This document shows, one piece after another, positions 9,729-61,295 of a DNA stretch of 64,000 nucleotides. The translations under genes were made by a program, and so were the position numbers. Source of the DNA: Candidatus Flemingiibacterium sp. (GTDB taxonomy: Bacteria; Bacillota; Clostridia; Oscillospirales; CAG-272). Location: assembly GCA_045636145.1 (NCBI GenBank), contig JAZTWV010000030.1:623-64622 (forward strand), given 5' to 3'. The notes below the pieces were generated by a model. It had not been told where the DNA came from. It saw only the letters and a list, made by a program, of their open reading frames with translations, and did not search any database. Positions within the stretch are counted from its first letter, which is position 1. Each line of letters opens with the position of its first letter.

Positions 9729-10081
9729 TTAGGATCAAATTCGTAAAGGGAAGAATATAAGAGCCACAGATGAGGGTATTGCCATCGAAAATCCCGTATG
9801 GAATAAAAAATACTATAATTGAGCTGATGGATTATTCCGGCCTTATAAATATATCGGATCGTCATTTTGTATGGCGGTCCGATTACTTTTTTAGATAGAA
9901 ATATGCAAGTTTGGAATAATAAAGCTTCATTTTTCGTGAATTTGGAAGTGAAAAAACGGGTTATGTTCCTTAATTACCCGAAAGTCTGCTAATAATTCGG
10001 GATATAGGGTCATATTACTCACAAAATGCACAATAATACACCAATGCATTATGGCGATATCAACAAAATATCAAAAAACTG

Positions 10082-10279: not shown

Positions 10280-12469
10280 ATGAAGAAATTTCTTGCACTG
10301 TTGCTTGCAGCGGGCATGATGTTCTCCGCAGTTGCTTGCGTTGACAATACCGTTTCCGACGACACCGATACCGGCGTTGCTCAGACCGGTGATGACACCA
10401 CCGCAGGCGAGGCAGTTGAATATGTTGATCCGTATGCAGACATTGAAGACTACGATGAACTCTCCGCAGCTATCTACGAGGATGTTCTCGGAGACTTCGC
10501 TACCGCTTACGAGGCAGCAAAGGCTGCTACCAATGTTTCCGAAAGATACGCACTGATGGCTATTGCTGAGGCAAAGCTTATGGAAGACGCTCTTATGCTT
10601 CCGCTTTCCTCTAACGGCGGTCTTTACGCTATCTCCAGAGTTGCTCCCTACACCATCACATCCGTTCTTTGGGGCAACGACAGCTACAGATTCCATGATG
10701 CTATCGTCGCAACTGAGCCTCTCACCACAGGCGACCGCGATGAGATGAAGGCTAAGTGGGCTGAGCTTAAGGGCACCGGCGAATATGAGGCTTGGGCTGA
10801 GCAGTTCCTTGCTGATAAGGGCTACACCCTCAAGGACACATATTCCATCGGATATGCAAGCGATCCTCAGACATGGGACGTTCTTGCTACCTCCAGAGCT
10901 GCTGACTCTGAGGCTATTATCAATACCTATGACGGACTCTATGAGTACGACATGGAAAATGTACTTAAGCCTGCTCTTGCAGAGAGCTACACCGTTTCCG
11001 AGGACGGTCTTACCTATACCTTCACCCTTAAGTCCGGCCTCAAGTGGGTTGACTCTCAGGGACGTGAGGTTGCAGACGTTAAGGCTGACGACTTCGTTGC
11101 TGGTATGCAGCACATGATGGACGCGGCAGGCGGACTTGAGTACCTTGTTCAGGGTATCATCGTTAACGCTACCGAGTACCTTGGCGGCGAGGTTGACTTC
11201 TCTGAGGTTGGTGTTAAGGCTATCGACGACACCACTCTCGTTTACACTCTCGAACAGCCCACCTCTTACTTCATGACCATGCTTGGCTATGGTGTATTCG
11301 CTCCTATGAGCCGCGAATACTACACCTCCCAGGGCGGTCAGTTCGGCGCTGACTTCGATTCTTCCGCAGAGTCCTACACCTACGGTAAGACCCCCGATAA
11401 CATCGCATACTGCGGTCCTTATGTAGTAACCAACGCTACCGCTGAGAACACCATCGTTTTCGCGGCTAACGAATCTTATTGGGATGCTGAAAACATCAAC
11501 GTAAAGACCCTTACATGGCTCTTTAACGACGGTTCCGAGGCAACCAAGGCATACACCGATATGCTTGCAGGCGTAATTGACGGATGCAACCTCAACGCGG
11601 CTTCTCTTGAGATCGCACGCGGCGACGGCAACTTCGATAAGTACGGCTACACCTCTCTTACCGACGCTACCTCTTTCATGGCATTCTACAACGTAAACCG
11701 TTCTCAGATGACCAACGTTAACGACCCTGCTAAGGGCGTTTCCGCTAAGACCGAGGACGACGTTGTTCGTTCCAACGCAGCTCTCCGCAACGTACACTTC
11801 CGCCGTGCGCTCTCCTTTGCGCTTGACAGAGGTGCATACAATGCACAGACTGTAGGCGAGGATCTGAAGTATACCTCCCTCAGAAACTGCTACACTCCCG
11901 GTACTTTCGTATCTCTTGAGGAGGAAGTTACCGTATCCATCAACGGCACCGACAAGACCTACCCTGCCGGCACCTACTACGGTCAGATCATGCAGGATCA
12001 GATCGACGCTGACGGTGTTAAGATGATCGTTTGGGATCCTACCGCTGACGGCGGCATCGGTTCCTCCGACGGATTTGACGGCTGGTACAATGTTGAGAAT
12101 GCTGTAGCTGAGATGGCACTTGCTATCGAAGAGCTTGCGGCAATCGGCATCGAGATCACCGCTGAGAATCCCATCTATATTGACCTTCCTTACTACTCCG
12201 GCTCCGAAGTATACGGCAACCGTGCACAGGCTTACAAGCAGTGCATCGACACCGCTTTTGAGGGCAAGGTAATAATGAACCTCGTAACCTGCGAGACCGC
12301 TCAGGATTGGTACTATGCAGGCTACTACACCGATTTCGGTTCTGAGGCTAACTACGACATTTATGACGTATCCGGTTGGGGTCCTGACTACGGTGATCCC
12401 GCAACCTACCTTGACACATTCCTTGCTGACTACGCAGGATACATGGTTAAGTGCATCGGTATTTATTAA
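10280..12469 (+). CDS. family-5 (peptide/Opp-type) ABC substrate-binding lipoprotein, apparently circularly permuted
   Basis: Signal peptide plus lipobox (FSAVAC). Core LKPALAESYTVSEDGLTYTFTLKSGLKWVD motif, and GWGPDYGDPATYLDTF only 22 aa from the stop. Strong codon bias. Confidence 0.8.
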   Translation: MKKFLALLLAAGMMFSAVACVDNTVSDDTDTGVAQTGDDTTAGEAVEYVDPYADIEDYDELSAAIYEDVLGDFATAYEAAKAATNVSERYALMAIAEAKLMEDALMLPLSSNGGLYAISRVAPYTITSVLWGNDSYRFHDAIVATEPLTTGDRDEMKAKWAELKGTGEYEAWAEQFLADKGYTLKDTYSIGYASDPQTWDVLATSRAADSEAIINTYDGLYEYDMENVLKPALAESYTVSEDGLTYTFTLKSGLKWVDSQGREVADVKADDFVAGMQHMMDAAGGLEYLVQGIIVNATEYLGGEVDFSEVGVKAIDDTTLVYTLEQPTSYFMTMLGYGVFAPMSREYYTSQGGQFGADFDSSAESYTYGKTPDNIAYCGPYVVTNATAENTIVFAANESYWDAENINVKTLTWLFNDGSEATKAYTDMLAGVIDGCNLNAASLEIARGDGNFDKYGYTSLTDATSFMAFYNVNRSQMTNVNDPAKGVSAKTEDDVVRSNAALRNVHFRRALSFALDRGAYNAQTVGEDLKYTSLRNCYTPGTFVSLEEEVTVSINGTDKTYPAGTYYGQIMQDQIDADGVKMIVWDPTADGGIGSSDGFDGWYNVENAVAEMALAIEELAAIGIEITAENPIYIDLPYYSGSEVYGNRAQAYKQCIDTAFEGKVIMNLVTCETAQDWYYAGYYTDFGSEANYDIYDVSGWGPDYGDPATYLDTFLADYAGYMVKCIGIY

Positions 12470-16917: not shown

Positions 16918-18222
16918 GTGTCAATGGAAACTGAACAGAAGACACGCTCCGGCAAGCTGCCGGCAGTGGGTCCGAAGGATGAAAACGGCAGAGAGATACT
17001 GCTCTCTCTCAAAAATGTTGATATAACCTTCGGTAAGGGCGACAAGGCAGTAAAGGCTGTAAAGAATGCCACCTTTGATATCTACAAGGGTGAGACATTC
17101 TCGCTGGTTGGTGAATCCGGCTCAGGTAAAACAACTATCGGACGTGCGGTTATCCGCGTAAACCCCTGCGCCGCAGGCGAGATACAGTATAAAGGTGTAC
17201 GTATTTCGGGCAAGATATCCCATGCCCTTGACCGCGAGGTTATCAGAAATATACAGATGGTGTTCCAGGACCCCGCGGCATCTCTTAACGAGCGTGCTAC
17301 TGTAGATTACATCGTGTCTGAGGGTCTCTATAATTTCCACCTTTTCAAGAACGAGAAGGAACGCGTTAAAAAGGTAGAGGATATTATCGAGGCGGTAGGT
17401 CTGCTCCCTGAGCATCTTACGCGTTATCCCCATGAATTCTCCGGCGGTCAGCGTCAGAGAATCGGTATAGCACGTGCAATGGTAATGGAGCCGGAGCTGG
17501 TTATTGCGGATGAGCCAATATCGGCGCTTGACGTGTCCATTCGCGCTCAGGTGCTTAACCTGATGAAGAAATTCCAGCGTGAGCGCAACATCACATATAT
17601 GTTTATTGCTCACGACCTCTCGGTTGTCAGATTTATCTCTGACCGTATCGGCGTTATCTATAAGGGCGATATCGTTGAGGTTGCCGAGGCGGAGGAGCTG
17701 TTTAATTATCCGCTCCACCCCTATACGCGCTCGCTTATTTCCGCCATTCCGATTCCCGATCCCAAGCTTGAAAAAAGCAAGGTGCTGTTCACATACGACC
17801 CGTCGGTGCACGATTACAGCGAGGATAAACCCGAGCTGTGCGATGTTGGTCACGGTCATTTTGTGTACGGAAACAAAAAAGAGATCGAGGAATACAAGGC
17901 CATCCGCGAGGCAGGCGTGCCGATGAAATCGGTAACATTCAGAAGCGAGACCGAGGCGGCGGAAGCACCTGCACCGGAAGTGGAGGAAATATCCATAAAC
18001 GAAGAAATACTTGATACCCCCCTGCACGATACGGGAAGCAAATGGTATTCGGTTGCTTCCTTCTTCCTGCCACCGGTGGGACTTATTGCAGGCGGTATAT
18101 TCAAGCACTTTAAGCATATAAGAAACTTTAAGGCGTGCCTTAAGGGTGCACTTGCAGGCTTTGGCGTTGCGGCGGCAATCGTCGTGCTGTTCCTCATACT
18201 TCTTATTTTTGCTGTAATTTGA
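16918..18222 (+). CDS. ABC ATP-binding protein (OppF-like) with C-terminal two-helix membrane extension
   Basis: [46 protein letters not shown]; last ~60 aa strongly hydrophobic. ATG 16924 is an alternative start. Confidence 0.85.
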
Positions 18223-43924: not shown

Positions 43925-44201
43925 CCGCGTAGGGGAGGGGCTTGCCCCTCCCGACGTTTTTGTTTGCGGGTATCATAAGAAACGGGAGGGGAAACCCCTC
44001 CCCTGCGGCGCGTGGTTGACGGTTTTACCGTAGGGGAGGCGTCTCGCCTCCCGTTTTTTTGTGTAATTACCTTGTTCCGGGCGATTCGTGAATCGCCCCC
44101 TACCGACGTGTTTACGGTATCACCGTAGGGCGGTGGCTTGCTGCCGCCGCTTTTGTTTTGGCGTAACATAAGAAACGGGAGGGGAAACCCCTCCCCTACG
44201 G
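43925..44201. repeat. cluster of six REP-like GTAG-hairpin elements in alternating orientation
   Basis: Units at 43925-43953(+), 43983-44008(-), 44028-44053(+), 44077-44105(-), 44123-44150(+), 44176-44201(-). Each is (C)CGTAG followed by a G-rich 6-9-bp stem-loop. A 53-bp direct repeat (43974-44026 and 44167-44219) has 3 mismatches. Confidence 0.85.
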
Positions 44202-44224
44202 CGTATGGTTGACGGTTTTGCACT

Positions 44225-56447: not shown

Positions 56448-56528
56448 TCCGTAGGGCGGGGCCTTGTGTCCCGCCGTTCTAACCGAAAAATATGTTGAAC
56501 GGTGGGAACAAGCCCACCATTCTACAGG
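56448..56528. repeat. REP-like doublet (convergent GTAG hairpins)
   Basis: 56448-56477(+): CCGTAG-GGCGGG...CCCGCC. 56498-56528(-): GGTGGG-AACAAG-CCCACC...CTACAGG. Confidence 0.7.
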
Positions 56529-56868: not shown

Positions 56869-59800
56869 ATGAGAAATCTCAAGAAGTTTCTTGCATTAGT
56901 GCTCGCTATGATTATGGTAGTAAGCGCTACTGCTATGGTTTCCGCTGATTTCACTGACGTTGCTGCTGACAGCAAGTATGCTGCTGCTATCAACGACCTC
57001 GCAGTGAAGGGTATCGTTAAGGGTACCTCGGATACCACTTTTGGTCCTGAACAGGACGTTACCAGATGGCAGATGGCTCTGTTTGTAGCAAGAGCTATCA
57101 CCGGTGAAGTTGAGTCCGACGACGTTTGGGCTAACGGCATCGTTCCTTTTACCGATGTTACCTCTTATAAGGGCGCTATCCAGTGCGCATACCTCAACGG
57201 TATTATCAACGGTACTTCCGCAACCACTTTCGCTCCCAACGACGGCATCACCTACGTTGCAGCTCTCAAGATGGCAGTTTGCGCTCTTGGCTACGGCGAG
57301 GATCTTACCTGGCCTTGGGGCTACTACAACAAGGCAGCTGAACTCGGTCTCACCGCTAACATGGATCTCGATGATCTTAACGTTGAGCTCAACAGAGCTG
57401 AGACCGCTCAGATCATCTACAACATGATCTACGCTGCTCCCGCTGACGGCGGCAAGACTTTTGCAGCTGAGAACTTCTCTATCGCTGCTCCCGAGAACAC
57501 CACTCTCTTCGCTATCACCGCTACTCCTAAGCAGTACGGTTATACCGAGGTTGACGAGAACGAGGAAGTTATTGCAGCTTACAACTCCGCTTCTGATGTT
57601 GACGGCGAGTTTGTAGGTCTCCAGCAGCTCATCAACGGCGTTCCTGCAGGCAAGATGCTCTACGTTGCAGTAGAGACCATCGGTCTTACCGCAGAAAACG
57701 TTGAGGACTACTTCAACTATGCAATTGAGCTCGTAAACTTTGACGAGGCTACCGGCGCATTCACCGGCTATGTAATGGGCGATGCTCCTAAGACCATCAC
57801 TCATGCAGATGTTAAGTTCGCTTCCAGCAACGACAAGCTCGTTATTGACGGCGCTACTTATACCGGCGTTGACAGCTTCACCGGTGCTTCCCTCATCAAT
57901 GAGCTCGTTATCTACAACGGCACAGGCGTAGCTGAGAACGCTAAGATGCTTCTCACCAACAAGGATGGCGACATCATTGACGAAACCGGCGAGGTTATCG
58001 CTGTATTCGCATATGAGTCCTCCACCGGTGCTAAGTACTACTACGATGGCTCCAGCAAGAAGGTTATCACCGCTGCTAAGGCTCTCGAAGATTACGGCGT
58101 GTTCGTAGACGATGCTGAGAGCACCGACTACATCAAGTACGAGACCCTCACTTCCGCTAACAACGAGATCGAAGATACTCTTTACCTCAACGCTTTTGAG
58201 ATGAAGATGTTCGACGATGACCGCGACGGCAAGTATGAGCGTGCTTACTATGCTCCTATCTACATGAGCGTATACTACACCTTCAAGGCTGAGATCGACG
58301 ACAAGGAAGTTGACGCTGACGGTCTTGTATACACCGTATACGGTGAGACTGTAGCAGCTGACAAGGTTGCTTACACCAATGAAGCTGCTAAGAAGGAAGG
58401 CGCTGTTTCTGTATTCACTTACAACGAGCAGCTCGACAAGATCAACGTAATCGACGTTCTCGAAATGAAGACCGGTTATGTTGAGGAGATTGACTCCACT
58501 AAGTACAATGCTACTCACGGCTACGGCGCAGTAAAGGTTACTGTTGACGGCGTAGCTTACGAAATCGGTTACGACTACGCTAAGGTAAGCGGTCAGACCA
58601 CTCAGGGCTCCGCTATGGGCGCAACCCTCATTCCTTACGATGATTCCAACTCCAACAAGTACGGTGTTGACAAGGTAGCTACCAGACCCTTCATCCAGTA
58701 CATTGTTGACAGAGCTACTTGGATCGACGATCTCCAGATCGACACCTACATCGGCTTCTACGCTTACAACGGCGTTATCATCTACGCTTCCGAGCTTGAG
58801 ATTTCCAACCTCTACGAGTTCGTAGTTGTTGAAGATTTCGCAGATTACGACCTCGCAAAGATCTACCTTGATCTTTGGGTAGGCGGCGAGCTTGAGGAAG
58901 AGGCTCTCGTTACCGAGCTTGACGGCAAGGAGCTTGAGGATCTTTCCACTTACAAGTTCTCCATGCTTCTCTCTGAGAAGGAATACTTCTACACCGGTAA
59001 CATCTATGCAGCTCATAAGGTTGAAGACGCTTACGTTCTCGATGAGATCATAACTGTTGACAACTTTGTTGACTACGAGCTTATCGACGCTAAGATCGCT
59101 GATGAGGACTATGTAGCAGCTCTCGCAGCTTACGATGCAGCTATGGCAGAAGATCCTACACAGACCGCTGTTGAGGCTCCCGCTGGCGGTGAGATCGTAT
59201 TTGATGACGGTTCCACCAGAGGTGCTGACAGAGCAACCAGAATCCGCACCTCCAAGACCACTGTATTCTACTTCATCGAGAATGCAGAGTGCGACTGCAA
59301 GACTCCTTGCGATCCTGCAGATCCCGCTGAAAAGTGCGATTCTATCAACGACGCTATGAGAACTGTTTCCGTATTCGTTGGTCAGCCTGACGATGCAACC
59401 ATCAAGTTCAACGATGATACCGCTATCTGGGTTGACGCTCTCGGTCACGGTACCGCTGAGACCAACGGCAGAGCTTCCGTAGTATTCGTAATCAATCCTG
59501 AAGAGCACTCCGGCTTCTTCGGTCTTACTGATGCTACTTACGTACTGACCAATCTCTCTACTAAGGCTACCAAGCTTGCTTCCGCTGAGAAGCTCGGTCT
59601 TCCTAAGGAGTACGATGGTACTTACTACATGTACTCCAATGCAGCTATCAGCCTTGACGATGCTTCCAGAATGAACATCTACTCTAAGGTAGAGCTTAAG
59701 GGCAACTACGTTTACAAGGTTGACGCAAACGGTGTTGTATATCTTAAGGACTCCGCTAACTTCGGCGCAGGTGCTGAGCTTACCGATACTGAGAATCATC

Positions 59801-60525
59801 AGCTTTGGACCTCCGCAGGTGTTGTAAGCTCCATGAACACCAGACGTAACTACGTTAAGTACGGTATCACCGATATGAACGGTGAGGCAAACACCACCGC
59901 TGATGCGCAGTGGGCAGAGCCTAACGGCACCGTAAGATACCATGACTTCGTTTGGTATGACAAGGCTAACACCAAGCAGATTGCTGAGGCACAGGCTGAG
60001 TTTGCTGAGCTCCTCGCTGAGGTTGCTAACAAGGCTATCGCAGGCGAAATCACCACCGGTGCTGAGTACGCTGATGCTCTTGGCTACGATGCTGATGAAA
60101 GCCTCAAGGCTGCTACTGATGTTATGGCATTCCTTGCAGACCTCGTTGCAGCAGGTAATGAAGTTGATGCAGACGACATCGAGTTCGAGGATATTCCTGA
60201 TACCATTTATGAGGTTGAGCTTATCACTCCTCTCGTACACGCTGACTTTGTTGACGACTATGTAGAGGTTGAGATCCTTTCCGGCGATAATGCAGGTACT
60301 TACCTCATCGACGAAGACGATCACATCACCGATATCATCGTTGTTAAGCAGAACGGTCTCGGCGTAGTTACCGGCGAGGACGCTATCGAGCTTCTTAACT
60401 CCGCTCCTCAGGTAATGTGGATCGGCGAAAAGGATGCTACCGGCGTTATGGGCGAGCTCTTCTCCGAGTATCTCGTTGACGGCTCCATCCTCTTCGTAGT
60501 TGGCTATGCTAACAACGTTAAATAA
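56869..60525 (+). CDS. S-layer / cell-surface protein with N-terminal SLH domains
   Basis: Signal peptide. SLH repeats (FTDVAADSKYAAAINDLAVKGIVKGTS..., FTDVTSYKGAIQCAYLNGIINGTS..., third degenerate). 1218 aa, extreme codon bias, AAGGAG RBS. Confidence 0.88.
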   Translation: MRNLKKFLALVLAMIMVVSATAMVSADFTDVAADSKYAAAINDLAVKGIVKGTSDTTFGPEQDVTRWQMALFVARAITGEVESDDVWANGIVPFTDVTSYKGAIQCAYLNGIINGTSATTFAPNDGITYVAALKMAVCALGYGEDLTWPWGYYNKAAELGLTANMDLDDLNVELNRAETAQIIYNMIYAAPADGGKTFAAENFSIAAPENTTLFAITATPKQYGYTEVDENEEVIAAYNSASDVDGEFVGLQQLINGVPAGKMLYVAVETIGLTAENVEDYFNYAIELVNFDEATGAFTGYVMGDAPKTITHADVKFASSNDKLVIDGATYTGVDSFTGASLINELVIYNGTGVAENAKMLLTNKDGDIIDETGEVIAVFAYESSTGAKYYYDGSSKKVITAAKALEDYGVFVDDAESTDYIKYETLTSANNEIEDTLYLNAFEMKMFDDDRDGKYERAYYAPIYMSVYYTFKAEIDDKEVDADGLVYTVYGETVAADKVAYTNEAAKKEGAVSVFTYNEQLDKINVIDVLEMKTGYVEEIDSTKYNATHGYGAVKVTVDGVAYEIGYDYAKVSGQTTQGSAMGATLIPYDDSNSNKYGVDKVATRPFIQYIVDRATWIDDLQIDTYIGFYAYNGVIIYASELEISNLYEFVVVEDFADYDLAKIYLDLWVGGELEEEALVTELDGKELEDLSTYKFSMLLSEKEYFYTGNIYAAHKVEDAYVLDEIITVDNFVDYELIDAKIADEDYVAALAAYDAAMAEDPTQTAVEAPAGGEIVFDDGSTRGADRATRIRTSKTTVFYFIENAECDCKTPCDPADPAEKCDSINDAMRTVSVFVGQPDDATIKFNDDTAIWVDALGHGTAETNGRASVVFVINPEEHSGFFGLTDATYVLTNLSTKATKLASAEKLGLPKEYDGTYYMYSNAAISLDDASRMNIYSKVELKGNYVYKVDANGVVYLKDSANFGAGAELTDTENHQLWTSAGVVSSMNTRRNYVKYGITDMNGEANTTADAQWAEPNGTVRYHDFVWYDKANTKQIAEAQAEFAELLAEVANKAIAGEITTGAEYADALGYDADESLKAATDVMAFLADLVAAGNEVDADDIEFEDIPDTIYEVELITPLVHADFVDDYVEVEILSGDNAGTYLIDEDDHITDIIVVKQNGLGVVTGEDAIELLNSAPQVMWIGEKDATGVMGELFSEYLVDGSILFVVGYANNVK

Positions 60526-60592: not shown

Positions 60593-60618
60593 GTGTTTGT
60601 GGTGGTGGGTTGGAAAAT

Positions 60619-60648
60619 GGCGGGCGATTCGTGAATCGCCCCTACGGG
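60619..60648 (-). repeat. REP-like GTAG hairpin
   Basis: GGGCGATTC-GTG-AATCGCCC followed by CTAC (60642-60645); same stem as the copy at 44077-44105. Confidence 0.75.
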
Positions 60649-60762
60649 AAGTTGCAATTTTGATAAATTGTTGTAAATATTGATGGCTCTATGTCAATAG
60701 TTGGGGGAAAGAAAACTAAAAAACCGCCTGCACACCGAAAAAAACGGTGGGGAGGCGGGTTT

Positions 60763-61295
60763 TTATACAGAGATATGATTTGTGGGGGAATATAATCTGT
60801 CGTGCTGCCAGCGCATAGGGTTTTCTTTGATATATGCTGAAATTTCGTTGTAGTCGTCTTGATTTCGTATGATGTGGTCGTAGAATGAGCGTTGAAAAAT
60901 CTTTTCACCAATTGTTTTGTTGGTTTGATTTATCTCTTTTGTTATTTGATATTTAAGCCATCCGATTATCGCATCTACCGTAGGGGAGGGGTCTCCCCTC
61001 CCGTCCTTCCTAATAACGGATAACAGCATATGTACATGATTTGGCATAATAACGTGATAATCAACGGTTACTTTTTCAAATTTTTCAGGTATACTTTCAG
61101 TCCACTTATTGGTGATTTCTCCGTAACGGGATAATTGCGGAAGGGGAGACCCTCCCCTACGATTGATGATAGAATATTCTTCCTATCTCTTGTACATATG
61201 GTTATAAAATACGCGCCGGTGGTGCCGTAATCAAAATTTTTTAGCCTGATTGATTTCCTTTGGGGCAAATTATGTTCCGTATTCATTATTATCAA
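60763..61295 (-). pseudogene. RAYT/IS200-like HUH (Y1) transposase gene split by a 1-nt frameshift
   Basis: Two adjacent ORFs (61295-61068 and 61047-60763). N-terminal RKSIRLKNFDYGTTGAYFITICT, HUH motif MPNHVHML, Tyr motif QRSFYDHIIRN. Adding one G to the GGG run at 61150-61152 fuses them into a ~177-aa product. Confidence 0.75.

Follow-up and report, generated by a model that had tools for sequence, protein, structure and literature searches.

In the 64,000-nt stretch of contig JAZTWV010000030.1 analyzed here (Candidatus Flemingiibacterium sp., assembly GCA_045636145.1; hereafter the window), a gene of the tnpA-REP type, encoding a putative REP-associated tyrosine transposase (RAYT) of the HUH/Y1 group, carries two mutually inverted copies of a GTAG-tagged repetitive extragenic palindromic (REP) hairpin inside its own reading frame. 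The explanation that best fits the locus as a whole, to which we give a probability of about 0.8, is a chromosomal clostridial tnpA-REP that holds an in-frame, inverted GTAG-REP pair and was broken by the recent loss of one nucleotide. The original prediction, made from the letters of the window, had proposed a RAYT-like gene with both hairpins read in frame as REP units, and in these respects it was borne out.

The locus is assigned to the RAYT/TnpA-REP type of HUH/Y1 genes with high confidence, on the basis of sequence and profile comparisons. As it stands, the gene (Table 1) is split into two open reading frames (ORFs), 61295/61286..61068 (75 aa from an alternative TTG at 61295, or 72 aa from the ATG at 61286-61284, the start used by homologues) and 61047..60763 (94 aa, N-terminus MPNHVHML, stop codon at 60765-60763), and frame 3 runs on as ...GSPLPQLSRYGEITNKW...MPNHVHML. 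Inserting one G yields, as predicted, a single protein of 177 aa (TTG start) or 174 aa (ATG at 61286) whose sequence (VGEGSPLPQLSRYGEI) is that of the homologues, residue for residue. The repaired 177-aa protein matched Pfam PF01797 (Y1_Tnp) at 29.6 bits, above the gathering threshold of 23, as did the 94-aa C-terminal ORF alone (26.3 bits); the 75-aa N-terminal ORF alone gave no PF01797 match. The best NCBIfam model was NF047646 REP_Tyr_transpos (REP-associated tyrosine transposase; 64.1 bits, E = 1.3e-17), with the IS200 model far behind at 20.3 bits. A profile of homologues searched against PDB sequences had 4ER8 (E. coli TnpA-REP) as its sole match, and Foldseek with an AlphaFold2 model, which is that of the homologue P0054 (64% identical; predicted local distance difference test (pLDDT) 80) and not of the window's own protein, ranked 4ER8 first (E = 1.4e-6), followed by ISDra2, IS608, and IS200 TnpA. 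The HVH motif and the motif at the position of YIKENP were kept in all aligned homologues; in PMC6006769, the signature Y---NP marks class 2 TnpA-REP, in contrast to Y---Q of class 1 IS200.

Both strands were read for the two hairpins. Site 2, on the plus strand, has the predicted sequence CCGTAGGGGAGGGG-TCT-CCCCTCCCG (also written as ccGTAGGGGAGGGG-TCT-CCCCTCCCg; the unit from 60980 reads GTAGGGGAGGGG-TCT-CCCCTCCCG) and a fold energy of -17.2 kcal/mol in a scan with RNA parameters. Site 1, on the minus strand, reads CGTAGGGGAGGG-TCT-CCCCTTCCG (also as cGTAGGGGAGGG-TCT-CCCCTTCCg; from 61160, GTAGGGGAGGG-TCT-CCCCTTCCG), so that the predicted hairpin is present but begins at 61161, one position from the 61162 first given. 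The two are inverted with their GTAG tags outward and the HUH motif between them, site 2 lying 3' of it. Relative to site 2, site 1 has one G fewer, as had been claimed, and one C>T change, which forms a G·T pair and is synonymous in the repaired frame (CTT vs. CTC, Leu). In the P0054 model, site 1 (VGEGSPLP) caps a beta-hairpin that follows strand beta1, and site 2 (GRGDPSPT) is a low-confidence loop (pLDDT < 50) between the HUH strand and a long helix, whose equivalent in 4ER8 (alphaC) inserts into the REP minor groove (PMC3479197).

Judged by their sequence, the 24-nt units of the gene are REP-family elements, identical to a repeat that is dispersed outside genes. At least 135 exact matches of the 24-mer were found in at least 120 metagenome stretches and, among the matches listed, 17 were in RAYT-like genes, 76 were clearly outside them with unrelated flanks, and 42 were too near the stretch ends. 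The hairpin motif was also over-represented in the window, as expected from the original prediction: GTAGGGG occurred 11 times vs. 3.4 expected (0 of 100 shuffles reached 11), and GTAG with a following hairpin 24 times, where Markov simulations gave 6.6 (maximum 16). In the flanks of homologous loci, cognate 13-mers were about eightfold denser than non-cognate ones, with cognate REPs being sparse throughout (15 matches in 1.08 Mb, a density of 0.014 per kb that amounts to a few tens per genome) and therefore too few for mapping REP families onto RAYT paralogues.

The hairpin pair is a trait of the family. A scan of one genome per GTDB (Genome Taxonomy Database) species gave 80 homologous loci (41-73% identity), all in clostridial metagenome-assembled genomes (MAGs), and GTAG hairpins were found at both sites in 77 of them, with orientation and positions unchanged even at 41% protein identity. 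VGEGSPLP and GRGDPSPT were invariant in the 27 close homologues (59-69% identity). Across the 80 loci there were 37 different stems, and both peptide positions changed together, as reverse-complement translations of each other, with the following pairs at sites 1 and 2: VGEGSPLP/GRGDPSPT, VGEGLAPP/GGASPSPT, VGRGLAPA/AGASPRPT, VGAIHESP/RAIRESPL, VGTGVPDGP/PSGTPVPT, VGGDVLDAP/ASRTSPPT, and VGATIGRP/GRPMVAPT. The 24-nt copies were on average 94% identical within one gene vs. 57% between genes, and the mean DNA fold energy was -7.1 kcal/mol for the hairpins vs. -0.8 for other 24-mers of the same genes. Hairpin-encoded loops thus sit at the same two positions and covary, as the original prediction had asked of the homologues, and the alignments indicate that the intragenic units co-diversify with the protein. 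In the wider family, relatives of P0225 from Chloroflexota, Nitrospirota, Patescibacteria, Omnitrophota, KSB1, and Geotalea also have such pairs, both copies being in the loop after the HUH motif (e.g., VGAGSPRP...GRGNRAPT). Some family members lack hairpins (P0126, P0141, and P0225 at site 1), and the protein fold therefore does not need them. With respect to annotation, the pair accounts for the very common VG..P and G..PT(PL) peptides as well as for how often these genes show frameshifts, expansions, and contig breaks.

At the DNA level, the commonest codon made up 0.97 of the hairpin codon columns vs. 0.60 of other conserved columns in 12 genes of the window's own subfamily (p = 1.4e-8), and in this subfamily glycine was encoded by GGG in 37 of 47 cases inside the hairpins vs. 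7 of 72 outside. Site 2 is translated in different frames by different subfamilies (..SPT vs. ..SPLR/Q). Compensated double changes, which leave each hairpin paired, distinguish the two copies of one gene at 15 stem pairs, and several stem types have conserved mismatches, of the kinds A·A, A·G, and G·T. Counted on the GTAG strand, G·T mismatches numbered 11 in copy 1 and 16 in copy 2 and A·C mismatches 0 in both, counts that are not phylogenetically independent, as the copies are near-identical and the subfamilies related. The GTAG strand of copy 2 is the template and not the mRNA strand, and the presence of G·T without A·C on it therefore speaks for a structure formed by the GTAG-bearing DNA strand rather than by the mRNA. 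Read from these alignments, the intragenic units are kept as DNA hairpins and not as conserved peptides.

The original prediction knew of no description of REP units within a RAYT. This does not hold, since Quentin, Siguier, Chandler & Fichant 2018 (BMC Genomics 19:475, PMC6006769) report tnpA-REP genes of subclass 2.4 (RAYT Group 4) with REPs inserted in frame. The searched text of Nunvar 2010, Ton-Hoang 2012, Messing 2012, Di Nocera 2013, Bertels 2017, Corneloup 2021, and the RAREFAN and 'Darwinian replicators' preprints does not mention REPs inside RAYT genes. The window's gene resembles subclass 2.4 in its HUH/Y1 class 2 protein with an NH[IFV]H HuH motif (NHVH in the window), in its long GTAG REPs with three G-C pairs at the stem base, in having in-frame REPs within the gene, in an insertion in the beta3/alphaC loop and an extra element before the HUH strand, and probably in a low copy number per genome. 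In addition, a profile built from the window's relatives found the canonical 2.4-like P0225 with E = 2e-40, which serves as a proxy for the authors' HMM/MCL (hidden Markov model/Markov clustering) assignment. The clostridial branch differs in that one REP precedes the HUH motif, so that the pair brackets it, in the two-site layout of nearly all its genes, in that most homologous loci are without flanking REPs, and in its taxa (Clostridia here, mainly Cyanobacteria and Bacteroidetes in subclass 2.4). The fixed bracketing pair, its co-variation through many stems, and the synonymous, compensatory, and strand-specific constraint appear to go beyond what the accessible part of that paper describes. 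The window's own copy is an ordinary broken member of a kind of system that is already published, and it comes from a branch whose layout is distinctive and strongly constrained.

The pair bears on an open question in the biology of REPs and REPINs (REP doublets forming hairpins), namely how REPs and domesticated transposases stay matched and persist together. Our tentative preference, held at somewhat less than even odds, is that the intragenic pair represents the enzyme's putative cognate single-stranded DNA binding and cleavage substrate, held within the gene. The flanking REPs of a REPtron would have been moved or folded into permissive surface loops, enzyme and substrate would from then on be inherited and diverge as one unit and so stay matched, and the relevant structure would form on the GTAG-bearing DNA strand. 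A stronger version, which we consider unlikely, would make the pair an obligatory, selected cis element, i.e., a protected reference copy of the substrate that seeds and homogenizes the extragenic REPs and that, together with the adjacent DNA-binding helix, makes up a specificity cassette diversifying, and now and then being exchanged, as one block; if true, it would account for enzyme-repeat matching over long times. Exchange of such a cassette is hinted at by the mosaic-looking L062, in which identity to L065/L040 is 97-100% over the N-terminal 35 aa and 93% over the C-terminal tail (third-position identity 0.5-0.8), whereas the middle, from REP site 1 to past the DNA-binding helix, is 20-40% identical and has a different hairpin type; this mosaic may reflect an exchange of the cassette. 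A global mosaic test (segment-wise and third-position identity) was noisy and, apart from these three loci, not decisive.

Besides the non-independence of the mismatch counts, a number of observations weigh against the above. The repaired protein, at its 64.1 bits, does not reach the curated equivalog cutoff of 80 for NF047646. A cognate REP was present within ~10 kb in only 12 of 77 homologous loci, and the REP adjoining the window's gene (60621-60645), taken by the original prediction for a third copy of the same unit, has the non-cognate stem GGGCGATTC, which corresponds to the hairpins inside genes of another RAYT subfamily. The frozen synonymous sites and compensated changes are also explicable by repeated overwriting by REPs (gene conversion or re-insertion) without selection for an intragenic role. 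In Quentin et al. 2018, the insertions are located at a distance from the sites of DNA binding and catalysis, in a peripheral region where they would probably have little impact. Lastly, the W motif is WQ in subclass 2.4 and (I/V)FQRSF in the window and its close homologues (WQ is present in some more distant members of the clostridial set), and the Y motif is YIxNNP there but YIKENP in the window and YIYENP in the consensus (E for N). The assignment to subclass 2.4 is therefore approximate, and the sequences place the window's gene in a clostridial branch that would be allied to this subclass without being a proven member of it.

The main rival to the substrate reading, which is essentially the view of Quentin et al. 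2018, takes the hairpins as neutral passengers, i.e., REPs that entered two permissive surface loops of the gene closest to the enzyme, are uniform only through concerted evolution with the REPs of the genome, and have no role inside the gene. The position of the insertions away from the functional sites fits this view, as do the low model confidence at site 2 (pLDDT < 50) and the occurrence of REPs in frame in many unrelated genes (PMC3733652). The hairpin-less relatives and the loss of one or both hairpins in three or four of the 80 loci (L025, L060, L064) point the same way, and the in-frame expansions and nested insertions seen in L004, L008, L049, L077, P0131, P0245, and P0256 resemble uncontrolled REP activity. 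On the other hand, independent insertions could hardly produce both sites in 77 of 80 genes at the same positions and in the same orientation with 37 stems, copies within a gene match each other far better than they match the copies of other genes, and the wider family, with both copies after the HUH motif, also has a pair, which points to retention of the pair as such. These data weaken the passenger view, which we consider possible but rather doubtful. The clostridial branch offers a clean natural data set for telling functional substrates from passengers.

Both REP sites are hot spots of in-frame rearrangement (L004, L008, L049, L077; P0131, P0244, P0245, P0256, P0183, P0190). Palindromes are nested in the hairpin loops (L004, both sites), whole units are duplicated (L049), or half-hairpins are multiplied in tandem (L008; P0131 reads GRGDPGRGDPGRGDP...).

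Regarding the break in the window's gene, comparison with its relatives points not to a device of regulation but to a recent one-off inactivation (1-nt loss) or an error of assembly. In an exact-sequence look-up with the two ORF halves and the repaired protein, the 94-aa half alone was on record, and its 90% cluster includes an intact 174-aa protein (P0391, contig L083) with 7 amino-acid differences. L083 is syntenic with the window (DnaD-like, DnaC/IstB-like, RAYT, then a gene for an S-layer homology (SLH) protein on the other strand), shares 96% column identity with it over the gene and flanks (the orthologous genes being ~97% identical in nucleotides), and has the perfect hairpin GTAGGGGAGGGGTCTCCCCTCCCG at the position of the window's deletion and C>T change. 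In the remainder of the gene, 9 synonymous and 7 replacement substitutions separate the two, a ratio indicative of purifying selection until recently. The intact site 1 hairpin (4 C, no A) is likewise present in Logan contigs from gut-metagenome run X1, which come from a related strain and end exactly at this hairpin. The frameshift is therefore specific to the strain or to the assembly. With regard to inheritance at a fixed site, there is one syntenic orthologue (L083), none of the 80 more distant loci shares neighbour genes (a tblastn search of the 80 GTDB loci for the DnaD-like, DnaC-like, and SLH neighbours had no match), and the window holds no second RAYT.

That the frameshift is not biological, i.e., that the organism has an intact gene into which the metagenome assembly introduced a homopolymer or palindrome error, seems unlikely to us, though less so than the stronger cis-element version above. 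The source is a MAG-type contig, the run X1 assemblies end at the very hairpin concerned, the orthologue is intact, and the rest of the gene has been under purifying selection. Against an error stand the second change (C>T) in the same hairpin, a ribosome-binding region unlike that of relatives (TTGATAATAATG vs. GGTGATAAAATG in L031), the fact that short-read assemblies seldom miscount a 4-nt run, and the existence of two other pseudogenes among the homologues, both broken elsewhere (L026 by a stop codon, L048 by a frameshift).

The remaining readings, which concern the mRNA, the peptides, and phase variation, are less likely than the substrate and passenger readings. The hairpins could act in the mRNA, by translational attenuation or through transcript stability, as autoregulation of the transposase, for which the mRNA hairpins that IS200 uses for control offer a parallel. 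Both units fold strongly as RNA, and the minimum-free-energy RNA fold of the intact pair has a 25-27-bp long-range stem around the HUH segment (-82.5 kcal/mol). Such a role is nevertheless improbable, as the wobbles of copy 2 are on the template strand (16 G·T, 0 A·C) and would turn into C·A on transcription, extragenic REPs have the very same sequence as the units, GTAG tag included, and copies with compensated differences would mismatch in the long-range stem. Slightly less probable again is that the REP-encoded peptides are functional, for instance by aiding the adjacent helix in recognizing the cognate hairpin, with DNA and peptide co-varying because they are the same sequence. In the model, the helix that corresponds to 4ER8 alphaC, the REP minor-groove helix (PMC3479197), follows directly after site 2. 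This helix differs by hairpin subfamily (WLKYQITKE, IGYIKMN, FVSTFKRF); set against this, the frame of site 2 also differs between subfamilies, synonymous sites are frozen, and hairpin-less and expanded versions exist. Moreover, we know of no stereochemical rule that links a peptide to the DNA encoding it. The original prediction had an indel in a hairpin arm switch the gene off. A phase-variable switch of this kind, in which slippage of the G run turns the transposase on and off, is very improbable: the indel does fall in a G run inside a hairpin, and states of 3 G and 4 G are both present in related genomes, but a 4-nt run is far below the length of known contingency tracts, L083 and the run X1 strain are intact, and only one of 81 genes is frameshifted in this manner, the other two pseudogenes being broken elsewhere.

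Among other known systems, the E. coli TnpA-REP/REPtron (PMC2817692, PMC3333891, PMC3479197, PDB 4ER8) has the nearest solved structure by both sequence and fold, and it shares the GTAG 5' of an imperfect hairpin, the kept stem mismatches, and probably a single-copy chromosomal gene at a conserved place (here L083). It differs in that REPs and BIMEs (bacterial interspersed mosaic elements) flank the gene, with none inside, in its subclass (2.2; DHLH, WE, YIHYNP), and in having a C-terminal autoinhibitory tail, which the window's protein lacks. The pair also recalls a REPIN (Bertels & Rainey 2011, PMC3116915), being two inverted REPs that in the intact gene are predicted to form one long stem; the spacer here, however, is ~134 nt of coding sequence with the HUH motif in place of a short non-coding linker, and copies with compensated differences point to the local hairpins being kept and not the doublet stem. 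As for intragenic REPs and Rickettsia palindromic elements (RPEs), numerous unrelated genes have GTAG REPs within their reading frames (Di Nocera 2013, PMC3733652), where such palindromes are likewise read as short Gly/Pro/Ala-rich peptides, e.g., VGAGCPRPGRGDRAP in Gura_3370; those insertions are sporadic and lineage-specific, whereas here the host gene is the presumed mobilizing enzyme and the sites are conserved across the family.

Outside the gene, all intergenic elements of the window have the architecture GTAG + GGG...CCC + G. The original prediction had regarded them as the same unit as the intragenic hairpins, which stands for this architecture but not for the stem: the gene's stem, GGGAGGGG, recurs in the array units at 43929, 43984-44008, and 44199 and nearly in that at 44030, whereas 44103 and 60645 have GGGCGATTC, 44125 has GCGGTGGC, 56451 has GGCGGGGC, and 56525 is different as well. 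Classical REPs exceed 100 copies per genome. The extragenic units of the window number ~9 in 64 kb, mostly in one array, and the few tens of cognate copies per genome estimated from the homologous loci are in line with the modest numbers of Group 4 (PMC5581495). Several stems correspond to hairpins inside the RAYT genes of other subfamilies (GGGCGATTC, VGAIHESP/RAIRESPL; GGGAGGGGCTTG, VGEGLAPP; GGCGGGGC, VGRGLAPA-like), and for this reason the genome probably holds further RAYT paralogues outside the window. A tblastn search of the window for further RAYT genes or remnants gave only short matches driven by REP-encoded peptides, and the intergenic REPs are therefore not debris of decayed RAYT genes. 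Within the array, a ~54-nt segment (cataagaaacgggaggggaaacccctcccct[g/a]cggcg..ggttgacggtttt) is present twice (43974-44027 and 44167-44220), from which it follows that the array grew by duplication of a larger unit of ~190 nt. The REP of the GGGCGATTC type next to the gene (60616-60648) had a word depth of ~1500 in run X1 vs. 6-12 for the surrounding genome, and this type is therefore extremely abundant across the run X1 community.

Table 1. Positions of the RAYT gene, its hairpins, the extragenic REP elements of the window, and the hairpin found upstream of homologous genes
Feature	Position	Strand	Detail
tnpA-REP (RAYT)-type HUH-Y1 gene, frameshifted	61286..60763	minus	ORF and frame analysis, PF01797
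5' intragenic REP (site 1), degenerate	61161..61138 (unit 61160..61138)	minus	VGEGSPLP in intact relatives
Frameshift point, G run 4 to 3	61150..61152	minus (CCC on plus)	single gap in alignment vs. L083
HUH motif codons CAT GTA CAT (H-V-H)	61038..61030	minus	between the two intragenic REPs
3' intragenic REP (site 2)	60978-61003 (unit 60980..61003)	plus, GTAG on template strand	read GRGDPSPT on coding strand
Y motif YIKENP, putative catalytic tyrosine	60834..60817	minus	Y---NP signature of class 2 TnpA-REP (PMC6006769 Table 1)
Extragenic REP, 118 nt 3' of stop codon	60621..60645	minus	GTAGGGGCGATTC-AC-GAATCGCCCG; hairpin scan; conserved in L083
BIME-like array, six GTAG hairpins between convergent ORFs	43929..44199	alternating + - + - + -	hairpin scan
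Array units	43929, 43984-44008, 44030, 44103, 44125, 44199	+, -, +, -, +, -	
Two inverted GTAG hairpins upstream of SLH-protein gene	56451..56528	56451 (+), 56525 (-)	GGCGGGGC at 56451, GGTGGG at 56525; hairpin scan
Hairpin upstream of RAYT homologues	L002 4218-4246; L036 9928-9956; L052 9906-9934; L057 9942-9969; L067 9935-9961; L041 10619-10647		
Hairpin upstream of RAYT homologues, with mismatches	L033, L044, L079, L029, L014		

Two elements are conserved in the flanks of homologous genes. Just upstream of many RAYT homologues of different hairpin subfamilies, there is, once per locus, a hairpin of the form ATTTCGGCAGAGG-loop-CCTCTGCCGATTT (Table 1), followed by TGTGTTATAAT and GGGTGATGAAAATG, which are promoter/operator-like and ribosome-binding-site-like. 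Directly after the RAYT stop codon, L002, L046, L058, L044, L079, and L036, which belong to several subfamilies, have a ~80-nt element (GGGTATGGGCTTTGCC...TGTAATACAAAGGCGAAACTGGCGATAAA) that could be a structured RNA or the end of an IS-like (insertion sequence-like) element. The window and five loci were compared with Rfam for such conserved flanking elements, with no match at gathering thresholds. The window's gene, which begins 18 nt past the DnaC-like gene, has neither the ATTTCGGCAGAGG/CCTCTGCCGATTT upstream hairpin nor the ~80-nt post-stop element, and a scan for sigma-70 promoters and terminators found no promoter for it and did not pick up its imperfect terminator-like repeat.

In the complete genome of Geotalea uraniireducens Rf4 (CP000698), a RAYT (L081, 10001-10615) has internal units at 10313(+) and 10400(-) and cognate REPs at 9909, 10627, 10688, and 18180. 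The gene is located directly upstream of a type I-E cas3/cse operon (10797 onwards), and the cognate REP at 18180 lies between cas5 and a PemK/RHH (ribbon-helix-helix) toxin-antitoxin pair. Additional file 4 of PMC3733652 lists Gura_3370 as the sole intragenic GTAG-11 REP host in G. uraniireducens; this RAYT also has an internal pair. Back in the window, a stop-free ORF of 1142 aa (56896..60324, minus strand) is antisense to the 1218-aa SLH-domain (S-layer-type) protein gene (56869..60525, plus strand) and is probably a by-product of the codon composition of that gene.

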